Of a stretch of 64,000 bases of DNA, positions 3,582 to 34,321 are shown in pieces (position 1 is the stretch's first letter; the number at the start of each line of letters is the position of its first letter). A model generated the notes under the pieces. It ran no database searches, had not been told where the DNA came from, and saw only the letters and a program-made list of their open reading frames with translations. A program made the translations under genes and the position numbers. The DNA lies in assembly GCF_041248615.1 (NCBI RefSeq), contig NZ_CP158426.1; one strand, given 5' to 3'. The DNA is from Escherichia coli (GTDB lineage Bacteria > Pseudomonadota > Gammaproteobacteria > Enterobacterales > Enterobacteriaceae).

Positions 3582-3610
3582 AAACAGGAGCCAGATGGCT
3601 CCTGTTTTTC
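3582..3610. terminator. intrinsic terminator after alaC, plausibly bidirectional (also downstream of ypdK)
   Basis: Stem caggagcc/ggctcctg with 4-nt loop followed by TTTTT, 20 bp after the alaC stop. Confidence 0.75.
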
Positions 3611-9508: not shown

Positions 9509-12500
9509 TTAGTCATTTTGTTGACAGAAAACAGCAATCTCCTGGTCCAGCTCTGCAATGTGTTCTTTAACAGAGTTCAGCAGCTGAAGAATTTCAGGCT
9601 TACTGTCATCTGAAACAGGTGTTATTTCTAACTGATGGCTAATATTAATCAACTTTTGCAAATTCAGGATGTTAGCCGCACCGTGGATGCGATGAATACA
9701 CTGATGGAAAGTTCTGTTGTCGCCAGCTTCTAGTGCATGAAACGCAGCGGGTAGATCTTTATGCGTTTCATGCTGGAAAGTCATGAGAATCTCCTGCATC
9801 AGTTGTAGATCGTTCGCCGTATTATTTTTCAGGGCCTCGATATCAAGGTGGCGATACTGAGGTGCAATAGGCGCAACCTGGTGTAACTGACTTAAATGTG
9901 TTTTCATTACATCCAGGGTCAACGGTTTGAACAAACATAAGTTCATGCCGTAATTTAACCCTTTTTCACGTTCGTTAGCCTGTGCGTTGGCTGTAAGCCC
10001 CCAGATGGGTAAGGAAGAATTTTGCTCACGGAGTTTGCGAGTCAACTCAAAACCATCCATATTCGGCATATTAACGTCAGTAATAAGCAGATCATAATGT
10101 TGCATACTGACTTTGTGTAGCGCTTGCACACCATCAGTTGCTTCATCAACATCATATCCTAATAGGTTTAGCTGGCGTTTGAGTAATAGCCTGTTGGTCG
10201 GATGATCATCCGCGATTAATATGCTCAACTTTTCAGGGAGTGTCATGGGTTGTTCTGCTTTTGCCTCGACAGTCGCCACTTGTTGGGTAATTTCTACCGG
10301 GATTGTGATCGTAAATGTCGTTCCTATGCCTGGATGACTTTCTAATGACAAATCGCCCTGCATGTTTTTAATTAATTCTTTGCAGATCATTAAGCCTAAA
10401 CCAGAACCTGTTTGCTGACGACCTGCACTTGTTTGGCTATAGCGTTTAAACAGTTGTTGTTGTTCTTCCTGTGATAATCCACTTCCAGAATCCATAATCG
10501 TCATTTTGATTACAGCGTGGTTGTCATCAATGTTAACCAGGGAGGTCGTAATTTTTACTGCCCCCTCGGTGGTAAATTTGAGAGCATTGCTCAGTAAATT
10601 AGATAAGACCTGCTTAAACGCCTGAGGGTCGATCTTAACCAGGTAATGTTCAGGAAACGTACTGCTGCAACTTAATGCGATCGATTTGCTTGCAGCAATC
10701 GCACCGAAAGAGTGACAAGTGTTCTGGACTAAAGTAGGGATATCGACCCATTGTGGTTGAAGTTGATAGTTACCCGACTCAATTTTGTCGACATCAAGGA
10801 TTTCACCAATTAAGCCGAGGAGTGATTGTCCGGTGGCGTAGGCAAGTGAAATCGCCTCCACCCGTTGCTCCTTGCTAAGACCAGAACCCGACAGAAGTTC
10901 CAGGAAGCCCATAATGGAGCTTATTGGTGTTCTTATTTCGTGACTCATTGTTGCCAGAAACTGGCTTTTTGCGACAGTTGCATTGATCGCTTTATTTCTC
11001 TCTACTTCGAGTGCATGAATTAAATCACGCGTCTCGGTAATATCTTGCCAACCACAAATATAAACAGCATGATCGCTGGCTGGCAGATTGCATAATGTAT
11101 GCCAGTGATTAATGCATCTTTTCTCTATGCCATTATCAATTTCAAATACCTGTGTGTATATTGTTCGATTTTCTTTCGTTTCTGCTGTGACTTCATGCGC
11201 ATTAGAAAAAACATCTTTAAAGGGTGAGTCACTGTTTTCTAATGGTAACATTGCATTTTTGTAGTAATCCGCAGTGAAATAATGTTCAAAAGCACTATTA
11301 TGACTAATGACATTACCTTGCCAGTTTACAACATAAGTTGGATTCGGTAAGGAATCCGAGAGTGCTTTTCGGAATGATATTTGGTTTTCTAAATCACCCT
11401 GAATGACTTTACGACGACGAACTGAGCGTAACAGGTAGAATCCCCATAAAAGGCTACTGCCAACTAATAAAACGGATAATGTCGTGACAATATAAAATTG
11501 CTCGCTATAGAGGTCCCATGTGTCAATGGTCACATTGGGCATTTTAATCCATTTTTCCGTCAGGCGCAGAACTTCGCTTGGGGGAATTGCATTCAGAGCT
11601 TTATTAATAATATCCTTAAGTTCCGGTTCTCCGCGAGGAAAAGCGAACGAAAGCGATGCATTCTGAACGCCGGGAATAAGAAAATGATAAAGTTCATTAG
11701 GATAGTAATGGTCGATCATGTAACGTGAATTTAGCTGTGTCGCGACCAGAGCATCAAGTTCACCTTCCTTGACCTTGTGAAATGCAGCGCTGGCGTTATC
11801 GACTTTTATCCACTCTACCTCCGGATACATCTCTTTTAATTGCGAATGCAGCTCATAATAATATGGAATGGCAACTTTCATTCCTTTTTTTAATGTTTGT
11901 TCACTGTCAGGCGCTTTTTGCATGACAAAAACGTAAGGCGTTGTTATGAAGGCTTCAGCAAATAAAACATTATTTTCTCTATCTTCACTATAAATAGCAC
12001 CGGGTAATATATCCCATCCGCCGGGATTCAGCTGTGTTCCAGCATGGATATTGTGTGAAACGGTGATCGGAGAAAAATTTAAACCTGTTTGCAAGGTAAT
12101 AATATTAAGAATATCCCCCATAACGCCCCGAACCGAGCCATTTTCATCCGTCATAGAATAGGGAGGGGAGTAAGGATTTTCCAGCACCTTTAAATCGGGA
12201 TGCTGCTTAATCCACTGTTTTTCATGTTCAGTGAGTTCTAATGGTTTGTTCAGAAAGGCCAGGTTTCCTGTATCAAGCCAATTTTGTGATACTTCATAGC
12301 GAACTTCGTTTGTCAAAGCATCAACAAATCGATTGAGTACTTCATTAAGAACGACAGATTCTTTTCTGGTCAAGAAAAAATTATATTGACGCGGTGAGTT
12401 ATAATATTTCACTACATTTAAGGAGTGAGTGAAATAGCGGGAAATCATACTGCTGGTAATAATGTTACTACCAATAAAGTAATCATTCTGTCCGGCTGAG

Positions 12501-30178: not shown

Positions 30179-31489
30179 ATGGGTCAGGTTTTACCGCTGG
30201 TTACCCGCCAGGGCGATCGTATCGCCATTGTTAGCGGGTTACGTACGCCTTTTGCCCGCCAGGCGACGGCTTTTCATGGCATTCCTGCTGTTGATTTGGG
30301 GAAGATGGTGGTAGGCGAACTGCTGGCACGCAGCGAAATTCCCGCCGAAGTGATTGAACAACTGGTCTTTGGTCAGGTCGTACAAATGCCGGAAGCCCCC
30401 AACATTGCGCGTGAAATTGTTCTCGGTACCGGAATGAATGTGCATACCGATGCTTACAGCGTCAGCCGCGCTTGCGCTACCAGTTTCCAGGCGGTTGCAA
30501 ACGTCGCAGAAAGCCTGATGGCGGGAACTATTCGCGCGGGGATTGCCGGTGGGGCAGATTCCTCTTCCGTATTGCCAATTGGCGTCAGTAAAAAACTGGC
30601 GCGCGTGCTGGTTGATGTCAACAAAGCTCGAACCATGAGCCAGCGCCTGAAACTCTTCTCTCGCCTGCGTTTGCGCGACTTAATGCCGGTGCCTCCGGCA
30701 GTGGCGGAATACTCTACTGGCTTGCGGATGGGCGACACCGCTGAACAAATGGCGAAAACCTACGGTATTACTCGCGAACAGCAAGATGCATTAGCGCACC
30801 GTTCGCATCAGCGAGCCGCTCAGGCGTGGTCAGACGGTAAACTCAAAGAAGAGGTGATGACTGCCTTTATCCCTCCTTATAAACAACCGCTTGTCGAAGA
30901 CAACAATATTCGCGGTAATTCCTCGCTTGCCGATTACGCAAAGCTGCGCCCGGCGTTTGATCGCAAACACGGAACGGTAACGGCGGCAAACAGTACGCCG
31001 CTGACCGATGGCGCGGCAGCGGTGATCCTGATGACTGAATCCCGGGCGAAAGAATTAGGGCTGGTGCCGCTGGGGTATCTGCGCAGCTACGCATTTACTG
31101 CGATAGATGTCTGGCAGGACATGTTGCTCGGTCCGGCCTGGTCAACGCCGCTGGCGCTGGAACGTGCCGGTTTGACAATGAGCGATCTGACATTGATCGA
31201 TATGCACGAAGCCTTTGCAGCTCAGACACTGGCGAATATTCAGTTGCTGGGTAGCGAACGTTTTGCTCGTGATGTACTGGGGCGTGCACATGCCACTGGC
31301 GAAGTGGACGATAGCAAATTTAACGTGCTTGGCGGTTCGATTGCTTACGGGCATCCCTTCGCGGCGACCGGCGCGCGGATGATTACCCAGACATTGCATG
31401 AACTTCGCCGTCGCGGCGGTGGATTTGGTTTAGTGACCGCCTGTGCTGCGGGTGGGCTTGGCGCGGCAATGGTTGTGGAGGCGGAATAA
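30179..31489 (+). CDS. fadI: 3-ketoacyl-CoA thiolase FadI (436 aa)
   Basis: Thiolase fold with active-site Cys context and C-terminal [14 protein letters not shown]; stop overlaps the fadJ start (TAATG). Confidence 0.95.
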
Positions 31490-33633
31490 TGGAAATGGCA
31501 TCAGCGTTTACCCTTAATGTCCGTCTGGACAACATTGCTGTTATCACCATCGACGTACCGGGTGAGAAAATGAATACCCTGAAGGCGGAGTTTGCCTCGC
31601 AGGTGCGCGCCATTATTAAGCAACTCCGTGAAAACAAAGAGTTGCGCGGCGTGGTGTTTATCTCCGCGAAACCAGACAACTTCATTGCTGGCGCAGACAT
31701 CAACATGATCGCCAACTGCAAAACGGCGCAAGAAGCGGAAGCACTGGCGCGGCAGGGTCAACAGTTAATGGCGGAGATTCATGCTTTGCCCGTTCCGGTT
31801 ATCGCGGCTATTCATGGCGCTTGCCTGGGCGGTGGGCTGGAGTTGGCGCTGGCGTGCCACGGTCGCATGTGTACTGACGATCCTAAAACGGTGCTCGGTT
31901 TGCCTGAAGTACAACTTGGATTATTACCCGGTTCAGGCGGCACCCAGCGTTTACCGCGCCTGATAGGTGTCAGCACAGCATTGGAGATGATCCTCACCGG
32001 AAAACAACTTCGGGCGAAACAGGCATTAAAGCTGGGGCTGGTGGATGACGTTGTTCCGCACTCCATTTTGCTGGAAGCCGCTGTCGAGCTGGCGAAGAAG
32101 GATCGCCCATCTTCCCGCCCTCTACCTGTACGCGAGCGTATTCTGGCGGGGCCGTTAGGTCGTGCGCTGCTGTTCAAAATGGTCGGCAAGAAAACAGAAC
32201 ACAAAACTCAAGGCAATTATCCGGCGACAGAACGCATCCTGGAGGTTGTCGAAACGGGATTAGCGCAGGGCTCCAGCAGCGGTTATGACGCCGAAGCTCG
32301 GGCGTTTGGTGAACTGGCGATGACGCCGCAATCGCAGGCTTTGCGTAGTATCTTTTTTGCCAGTACGGAAGTGAAGAAAGACCCCGGCAGTGATGCGCCG
32401 CCTGCGCCATTAAACAGCGTGGGAATTTTAGGTGGTGGCTTGATGGGCGGCGGTATTGCTTACGTCACTGCTTGTAAAGCGGGGCTTCCGGTCAGAATTA
32501 AAGATATCAACCCGCAGGGCATAAATCATGCGCTGAAGTACAGTTGGGATCAGCTGGAGGGCAAAGTTCGCCGTCGTCATCTCAAAGCCAGCGAACGTGA
32601 CAGACAGCTGGCATTAATCTCCGGAACGACGGACTATCGCGGCTTTGCCCATCGCGATCTGATTATTGAAGCGGTGTTTGAAAATCTCGAATTAAAACAA
32701 CAAATGGTGGCGGAAGTTGAGCAAAATTGCGCCGCTCATACCATCTTTGCTTCGAACACGTCATCTTTACCGATTGGCGATATCGCCGCTCACGCCGCGC
32801 GACCGGATCAAGTTATCGGCCTGCATTTCTTCAGCCCGGTAGAAAAAATGCCGCTGGTGGAGATTATTCCTCATGCGGGGACATCGGCGCAAACCATCGC
32901 TACCACAGTAAAACTGGCGAAAAAACAGGGTAAAACGCCAATTGTCGTGCGTGACAAAGCCGGGTTTTACGTCAATCGCATTTTAGCACCTTACATTAAT
33001 GAAGCTATCCGCATGTTGACCGAAGGTGAACGGGTAGAGCACATTGATGCCGCGCTGGTGAAATTTGGTTTTCCGGTAGGCCCAATCCAACTTTTGGATG
33101 AGGTAGGAATCGACACCGGGACTAAAATTATTCCTGTACTGGAAGCCGCTTATGGAGAACGTTTTAGCGCGCCTGCAAATGTTGTTTCTTCAATTTTGAA
33201 CGACGATCGCAAAGGCAGAAAAAATGGCCGGGGTTTCTATCTTTATGGTCAGAAAGGGCGTAAAAGCAAAAAACAGGTCGATCCCGCCATTTACCCGCTC
33301 ATTGGCGCACAAGGGCAGGGGCGACTCTCCGCACCGCAGGTAGCTGAACGGTGTGTGATGTTGATGCTGAATGAAGCAGTACGTTGTCTGGACGAGCAGG
33401 TTATCCGTAGCGTGCGTGACGGAGATATTGGCGCGGTATTTGGCATTGGTTTTCCGCCATTTCTCGGTGGTCCGTTCCGCTACATCGATTCTCTCGGTGC
33501 GGGTGAAGTGGTTGCAATAATGCAACGACTGGCCACGCAGTATGGTTCCCGTTTTACCCCTTGCGAGCGTTTAGTCGAGATGAGCAAGCGTGGGGAAAGT
33601 TTTTGGAAAACAACTGCAACTGACCTGCAATAA
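31489..33633 (+). CDS. fadJ: multifunctional fatty-acid oxidation protein FadJ (enoyl-CoA hydratase / 3-hydroxyacyl-CoA dehydrogenase), 714 aa
   Basis: N-terminal crotonase domain and C-terminal NAD-binding 3-hydroxyacyl-CoA dehydrogenase domain ([13 protein letters not shown]). Confidence 0.95.
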
Positions 33634-33835
33634 GAAGGTCAAAGCTATATGAATCCGCGCTGAATGGCGGAGTGTTGCTCAAAATGTAAACGCATATTGA
33701 CTATACTTACGCCATTGAGGTAAAAAACAGCGTTTCATTCGGTGAATGGATAAGGCACAATGCCGGCCACCGTTTTCTTTCTCTGGTTTCAGATGAAAGA
33801 AAACGGGCGAATCTGGTTAACAAAAGCGGTGCAAT

Positions 33836-34321
33836 ATGCAAGTTTTTATCATGCGTCACGGCGACGCAGCCCTCGATGCCGCCAGTGATTCGGTTCGTCC
33901 TCTGACTACTAACGGTTGTGACGAATCTCGCCTGATGGCGAACTGGCTGAAAGGTCAAAAAGTGGAAATCGAACGCGTTCTGGTGAGCCCGTTCCTGCGA
34001 GCCGAGCAAACACTGGAAGAAGTAGGGGATTGTCTGAACCTGCCTTCCAGTGCAGAAGTTCTGCCGGAGTTAACGCCCTGCGGCGATGTTGGTCTGGTCA
34101 GTGCCTATTTACAGGCGTTGACCAATGAAGGTGTTGCTTCGGTACTGGTGATCTCCCACTTACCCTTAGTCGGGTATCTGGTTGCTGAGTTATGTCCGGG
34201 CGAAACGCCGCCTATGTTTACCACCTCGGCCATTGCCAGCGTAACGCTTGATGAAAGCGGAAACGGCACATTCAACTGGCAGATGAGCCCGTGTAATCTG
34301 AAGATGGCAAAAGCGATTTAA
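33836..34321 (+). CDS. sixA: phosphohistidine phosphatase SixA (161 aa)
   Basis: MQVFIMRHGDAA with the RHG histidine-phosphatase motif. Confidence 0.93.
   Translation: MQVFIMRHGDAALDAASDSVRPLTTNGCDESRLMANWLKGQKVEIERVLVSPFLRAEQTLEEVGDCLNLPSSAEVLPELTPCGDVGLVSAYLQALTNEGVASVLVISHLPLVGYLVAELCPGETPPMFTTSAIASVTLDESGNGTFNWQMSPCNLKMAKAI

Follow-up and report, generated by a model that had tools for sequence, protein, structure and literature searches.

Inverted repeat upstream of sixA

The region between fadJ and sixA in E. coli carries an inverted repeat close to the sixA start codon, which raises the question of what kind of element it is. The original prediction took it for a protein-binding site or an RNA structural element and not for a terminator. 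We analyzed it within a stretch of 64,000 nucleotides of E. coli DNA, hereafter the window, whose + strand contains fadI (30179-31489), fadJ (31489-33633) and sixA (33836-34321), followed by a fimbrial operon. The 202-nt fadJ-sixA spacer is present in exactly one copy in 5425 of 5426 complete E. coli genomes, with 95-100% identity, shows no annotation in E. coli genomes, and ranges between 191 and 227 nt across species. In K-12 MG1655, sixA is located at 2456327-2456812 on the minus strand, therefore window position x corresponds to 2490648 minus the NC_000913.3 coordinate. The features of the locus, in window coordinates, are:

fadJ, 31489-33633, + strand: upstream gene, co-oriented with sixA; its stop codon lies 136 nt 5' of the hairpin
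Conserved upstream block, 33685-33767, no strand assigned: presumed sixA promoter or regulatory DNA, with putative functions for its parts, which are a weak -35 (33732-33738), an A6 UP-like tract (33722-33727) and TTGACTATACTTAC (33697-33710)
-10 hexamer CACAAT, 33756-33761, + strand: 7 nt 5' of the transcription start; putative, assigned from this spacing
sixA transcription start, 33768, + strand: mapped from Kim 2012 (PMC3415461); starts with C, and the stem begins 2 nt downstream (+3)
Hairpin, 33770-33806, + strand: 12-bp outer stem (33770-33781/33795-33806) and 4-bp inner stem (33782-33785/33790-33793), with a GUUU loop (33786-33789) and U33794 bulged
Rest of the sixA 5' UTR, 33807-33835, + strand: weak Shine-Dalgarno (SD) sequence GCGGUG (33826-33831) and A-rich AACAAAAGC
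sixA coding sequence, 33836-34321, + strand: phosphohistidine phosphatase of 161 amino acid residues; the synonymous sites of codons 2-10 are invariant too

The arms of the repeat are CGTTTTCTTTC at 33771-33781 and GAAAGAAAACG at 33795-33805, which agrees with the 11-bp repeat and 13-nt spacer initially described. Its distance to sixA, given as about 30 bp, is 30 nt from the hairpin end to the ATG (33836). Neither flank contains a T-run, as had been stated, and a scan for promoter and terminator patterns found no terminator and no + strand promoter. The repeat is larger than first described, with an added pair C33770-G33806 that makes 12 perfect bp. Furthermore, the 13-nt spacer is itself structured: TCTG (33782-33785) pairs with CAGA (33790-33793), leaving a GTTT loop and T33794 bulged. 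The E. coli stem is AU-rich, and RNA folding of the hairpin gave -21.7 to -22.3 kcal/mol with z of -4.2 to -6.2 (dinucleotide shuffles); when folded from the mapped 5' end, the values were -21.7 kcal/mol and z -6.2, and the hairpin represents 83% of the ensemble. For comparison, RNase III substrates have approximately 20 bp or more of near-continuous dsRNA, and the E. coli sixA stem is 16 bp with a bulge. No covariance model of Rfam 15 (cmscan, E <= 10) matched any region overlapping 33634-33835.

For perfect inverted repeats with arms of 12 bp or more and a spacer of 3-20 nt, a first-order Markov model predicts 0.18 per 64 kb; three such loci occur in the window, and the repeat alone is therefore only modestly unusual. 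Selection on the hairpin is shown by the cross-species evidence, not by the repeat itself.

Conservation of the hairpin in Enterobacteriaceae

The sixA loci of at least 80 Enterobacteriaceae species among the matches listed, plus three more distant genera, were compared. Across species the hairpin ranges between 36 and 59 nt, with 37 nt in Kluyvera, and its sequence changes completely. With a mean identity to E. coli of 0.38, against 0.56 for third positions elsewhere in sixA (at least 80 species), the hairpin evolves faster than synonymous sites, and its flanks are unchanged across the bacterial family. Near-invariance extends over approximately 85 nt 5' of the hairpin, the 23-27 nt on its 3' side and the first ten codons of sixA; mean identities to E. 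coli are 0.91 for about 33685-33769, 0.99 for 33813-33835 and 0.95 for the third positions of codons 2-10.

Each of the 75 distinct orthologous inserts gives one hairpin, always anchored at the same position, with a mean dG of -20.5 and a mean z of -2.85. Equally long variable intergenic segments of the same loci, used as control, gave -7.8 and +0.29 (p = 5e-22). Pairing was further analyzed in the nine basal pairs, chosen for being held in register by MAFFT in most genera. In these, 84% of the cells are paired, in relation to 75% in the shuffle control and 30-57% in slid controls. Double changes occur in seven of the nine pairs, and the covariation score was 0.431 versus 0.271, none of 500 shuffles scoring higher. 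The same pattern is found within the species: six hairpin positions distinguish E. coli 2EC1 (L085) from the window, and together they form three fully compensated pairs (33774/33802, 33775/33801 and 33777/33799). Between 2EC1 and the window the flanks are identical, and these compensated pairs hold six of the approximately ten differences in the 202-nt spacer.

Absence of the palindrome in related genomes had been named as the outcome that would speak against a functional element. The sequence of the palindrome is indeed not conserved, but a hairpin lies at the same position in every species examined. That outcome was thus mis-specified, since sequence is lost while hairpin position is kept. 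The comparison indicates that selection acts on pairing ability only and not on sequence, and the locus offers an unusually clean natural case of selection for RNA pairing alone.

Two other analyses of the same sequences were less informative. When run on a plain MAFFT alignment, in which the stems are mis-registered, RNAalifold for that reason did not recover the hairpin. It reported instead a 4-bp pairing between CAYY, at the base of the 5' arm, and the GGUG of the SD region, which is invariant. This pairing was dismissed, as it has four pairs and one-sided C-to-U changes only, compared with a local hairpin of -20 kcal/mol. Single-linkage clustering of the hairpin interiors gave eight clusters at 65% identity, with excessive chaining.

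Strand preference of the element

The fold on the sixA-sense strand is the more stable in 70 of the 75 inserts (mean ddG -5.6 kcal/mol; p = 2e-13), and G·U pairs account for 199 of 1374 pairs on this strand and 72 of 1160 on the opposite one. The folding bias together with the G·U excess points to an RNA element and not to a symmetric DNA operator. Of the two possibilities raised originally, the RNA structural element is thus borne out by a conserved structure with compensatory changes, a sense-strand bias and no U-tract, and the existence of a selected sense-RNA hairpin is near certain.

The protein-binding site, understood as a palindromic DNA operator, fares poorly. A binding site for a dimeric regulator, or another DNA element such as a cruciform or a REP/MITE repeat, would account for a perfect 12-bp dyad that adjoins a promoter. 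However, the arms are 38% identical, below the synonymous level, and the half-site is not conserved; the lengths of arms and spacer vary; G·U is tolerated in the pairing on one strand only; and, against a repeat element, each of 5425 E. coli genomes has it in a single copy. The element resembles REP/BIME and ERIC sequences in being an intergenic imperfect palindrome in E. coli, but unlike them it occurs once per genome, lacks the REP consensus and has no Rfam or repeat match. A symmetric operator or repeat element is contradicted by these results, and we consider such a DNA element very improbable.

An antisense RNA was ruled out by the strand test, which favours the sixA-sense fold. Three small ORFs run across the element (42 amino acids at 33760-33888, 16 amino acids from the ATG at 33746, and 19 amino acids on the minus strand); they were ruled out because a 1-nt indel (ATGCCGGCC vs ATGCCCGGCC) changes the frame between genera and conservation is equal at all three codon positions.

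Promoter and transcription start of sixA

A single sixA transcription start was reported by Kim et al. 2012, PLoS Genet, Table S1 (PMC3415461), at NC_000913.2 2454902(-) with 93 reads; the printed sequence ends in ...ATGCCGGCC and gives a sixA 5' UTR of 68 nt. The -10 region is GGCACAAT in 78 of 81 sequences and GGCAAAAT in the remaining three. Assuming the same -10-to-start spacing throughout, 0-2 nt separate the 5' end from the hairpin in 76 of 78 distinct sequences. Furthermore, the distance between hairpin and -10 is fixed while the length of the fadJ-sixA spacer varies. RNA coverage in the study of Adams et al. 2021 (PMC7815308) rises 3.4-fold from the upstream to the downstream side of window position 33719, a step consistent with a promoter in between. 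It is therefore likely, on a single transcription start dataset, that the hairpin forms the 5' terminus of the sixA mRNA.

Variation in the conserved upstream block is confined to 33692-33695 and 33741-33749. Its element TTGACTATACTTAC contains what we take to be a sigma-S-like -10, CTATACTTA, together with a TTGACT hexamer that is presumably -35-like. The TGTAAA-N6-TTGACT arrangement in this block is, we assume, TyrR-box-like. Comparison of the block by eye with the consensus sequences for CRP, ArcA, CpxR, IscR, FadR, Cra, sigma-28 and sigma-54 gave nothing convincing. The constraint on the block exceeds what a simple promoter explains. A dyad within it, CATTC-NNN-GAATG (33736-33748), was considered as a second hairpin or operator and rejected: it is absent in Siccibacter, Atlantibacter and Buttiauxella while the length stays constant, and for this reason we read it as promoter spacer.

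RNA 3' ends and leader downstream of the hairpin

Term-seq data (Adams 2021, PMC7815308) show sense 3' ends close to the hairpin: one at K-12 2456833 (window 33815) in LB at OD 2.0 with 39.9k reads, and another at K-12 2456835 (window 33813) in a third condition with 68k reads. These ends, which were not called in LB at OD 0.4 (Adams 2021, PMC7815308), lie 7-9 nt past the stem. Combined with the start at 33768, they delimit an RNA of 46-48 nt that is essentially the hairpin alone. In 70 of 78 sequences, the 8 nt past the stem hold two to four interrupted U; only eight sequences have five or more.

In LB at OD 0.4, a different sense 3' end was found at K-12 2456929 (33719) with 32k reads, with a Rho score of 1.0 (not significant) and an intrinsic-terminator score of 6.7 (Adams 2021, PMC7815308). 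This end falls between TTGACT and the A-tract of the invariant block, and no conserved hairpin explaining a 3' end at 33719 was seen.

The invariant leader contains ACA at 33820-33822, 16 nt 5' of the sixA AUG, which matches the sixA position in the published 'MazF regulon' (Sauert et al. 2016, PMC5001579); cleavage by MazF at this site would remove the leader, hairpin included. In addition, an invariant hairpin is predicted at 33822-33847 (-5.9 kcal/mol, z -2.4), which includes part of the SD along with the start codon, and a second one at 33852-33868 (-8.6 kcal/mol, z -2.3). Nothing varies in either of them. The translation-initiation region (33813-33867) also shows an (ARN)3-like tract, AACAAAAGC.

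Function of the hairpin

RppH and the 5' sensor of RNase E require single-stranded 5' termini (review PMC3997798), and this requirement is the accepted explanation of why 5' structures, as in ompA and papA, stabilise mRNAs (PMC3997798). Known examples are hairpin 1 of the ompA 5' UTR and the papA 5' stem-loop (Emory, Bouvet and Belasco 1992; Bricker and Belasco 1999; both cited in PMC3997798). The sixA hairpin shares the features of these 5' stabilising stem-loops, that is, an extreme 5' position (one transcription start dataset), a stable sense stem-loop and conservation of structure, not of sequence. As in ompA and papA, the stable hairpin lies 0-2 nt from the primary 5' end, its function is expected to be sequence-independent, in keeping with structure-only conservation, and a single-stranded A/U-rich leader with the ribosome-binding site comes after it. 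It differs from them in its 16-25 bp, longer than needed, and in the abundant 46-48 nt hairpin RNA detected.

We therefore favour, with a confidence somewhat above an even balance, a 5'-terminal, sequence-independent stem-loop that would protect the sixA mRNA from 5'-end-dependent decay by RppH and RNase E and leave a stable remnant of 46-48 nt. This class acts sequence-independently, which matches the selection pattern found. Transcription from the CACAAT promoter would begin at C33768, with the stem from +3. The 0-2 unpaired 5' nucleotides would then hinder both pyrophosphate removal by RppH and 5'-end-dependent attack by RNase E, making the sixA mRNA stable. After a downstream cut, trimming by 3' exonucleases would stop at the exonuclease-resistant hairpin and yield the 46-48 nt remnant detected by Term-seq. 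A stabilising function is the most probable one, and we infer that the 3' ends at 33813 and 33815 originate as a decay remnant. Most likely, the sixA hairpin works like the 5' stem-loops of ompA and papA. In itself it is of modest interest.

Several points bear against this reading. The start at 33768 comes from one dataset, with 93 reads and a C start. The invariant block also holds TTGACT-18-TAAAAA and the sigma-S -10-like CTATACTTA, and transcription from these upstream promoter-like elements would place the hairpin inside a longer leader. Ends 7-9 nt past the stem are as compatible with the geometry of termination as with trimming by exonucleases, and a hairpin of 16-25 bp exceeds the needs of 5' protection.

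The main rival is premature termination or pausing. A promoter-proximal attenuator or pause, in which the nascent hairpin stops RNA polymerase at +46/+48 and gives a short abortive RNA that throttles sixA, more strongly in stationary phase and minimal medium, is unlikely in our judgment. It would explain several observations: the ends at 33815 and 33813, 7-9 nt past the stem, have the geometry of intrinsic termination and are condition dependent, not being called in LB at OD 0.4, and the sequence 3' of the stem is invariant. The elemental pause consensus is G-10/Y-1/G+1, and G33805...U33814 G33815 fits it. The sixA leader thus resembles intrinsic terminators and 5' UTR attenuators in having a strong hairpin with 3' ends 7-9 nt downstream. 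It departs from them in its AU-rich E. coli stem and in having no U-tract, the tails being AUUCUGGU or GCGAAUCU and the terminator-pattern scan without a match; moreover, a start at 33768 leaves no upstream RNA for antiterminator pairing. To our knowledge, there is no condition-specific regulator of this region. A more elaborate form of this idea, which we rate somewhat lower still, is a dedicated control module for SixA, formed by the hairpin and its invariant flanks, in which the U-less hairpin would bring about regulated pausing or premature termination at +46/+48. This module would possibly act together with the invariant start-codon hairpin and a putative factor bound to the invariant leader. 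In that case, an abundant tiny 5' RNA would be made in stationary phase and minimal medium, and the SixA level would be set during starvation.

Two further readings displace the hairpin from the 5' end of the message, and both seem doubtful, clearly more so than attenuation. The hairpin could be a 3'-end element of fadIJ, where read-through mRNA ends at the hairpin or is trimmed to it and its 3' end is protected. fadJ is co-oriented, no terminator is predicted between the genes, and sense 3' ends occur just past the stem; hairpin-protected 3' ends without a U-tract are known for Rho-terminated transcripts, and the sixA element resembles the protected ends of Rho-terminated or processed transcripts in lacking U, in its nearby trimmed end and in its location downstream of co-oriented fadIJ. 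However, the position of the hairpin is fixed to the sixA promoter (0-2 nt from the start) and not to fadJ, from whose stop codon its distance varies. It also sits downstream of the mapped promoter, fadJ shows low coverage compared with the region downstream, and the locus has a Rho score of about 1. The other reading places the hairpin inside a longer conserved leader or small RNA, starting upstream at about 33714 or 33733, whose invariant 35-55 nt 5' part would be functional and whose variable hairpin would be the 3' structural module. Enterobacterial sRNAs show a similar pattern, in which an invariant 5' segment precedes a 3' hairpin that varies and covaries; moreover, neither TTGACT-18-TAAAAA nor CTATACTTA varies, and 3' ends are found past the hairpin. 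Against it, the sole mapped start is 33768, and 33741-33749 varies at constant length between invariant blocks, like a -35/-10 spacer. In addition, there is no U-tail for Hfq, no Rfam match and no + strand promoter in the scan.

SixA and its control region

Three reports (PMC6282199, PMC7948535, PMC12934123) deal with SixA, a phosphohistidine phosphatase whose targets are nucleoside diphosphate kinase and, in the nitrogen PTS, NPr; SixA also promotes starvation survival. In the literature searched, nothing was found on the control of SixA expression, and full-text searches found no paper describing the present element. The present analysis locates a sixA control region composed of a near-invariant promoter, a 5' hairpin conserved in structure only and a translation-initiation region that is invariant. 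The hairpin gains interest because SixA regulation is unexplored and the surrounding region is conserved far beyond the needs of a simple promoter.

Additional observations in the window

SixA database entries P0001, P0003, P0004, P0005, P0007 and P0033 have 173-223 amino acids in relation to the 161 of the E. coli protein. They probably represent mis-called start codons, in which case the extra N-terminus would come from the promoter and hairpin region. At the other end of the spacer, AAGGTCAAAG (33635-33643), immediately 3' of the fadJ stop, is 80-100% conserved in the 81-sequence alignment, unlike the rest of the 5' part, which is otherwise unconserved; this could be an alignment effect from variable FadJ C-termini. 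Finally, further perfect or near-perfect inverted repeats of 12-16 bp were found in the window at 3582-3607, 9735-9773 and 26218-26255, the last of which is flanked by an A-run and a T-run in a bidirectional-terminator-like arrangement.
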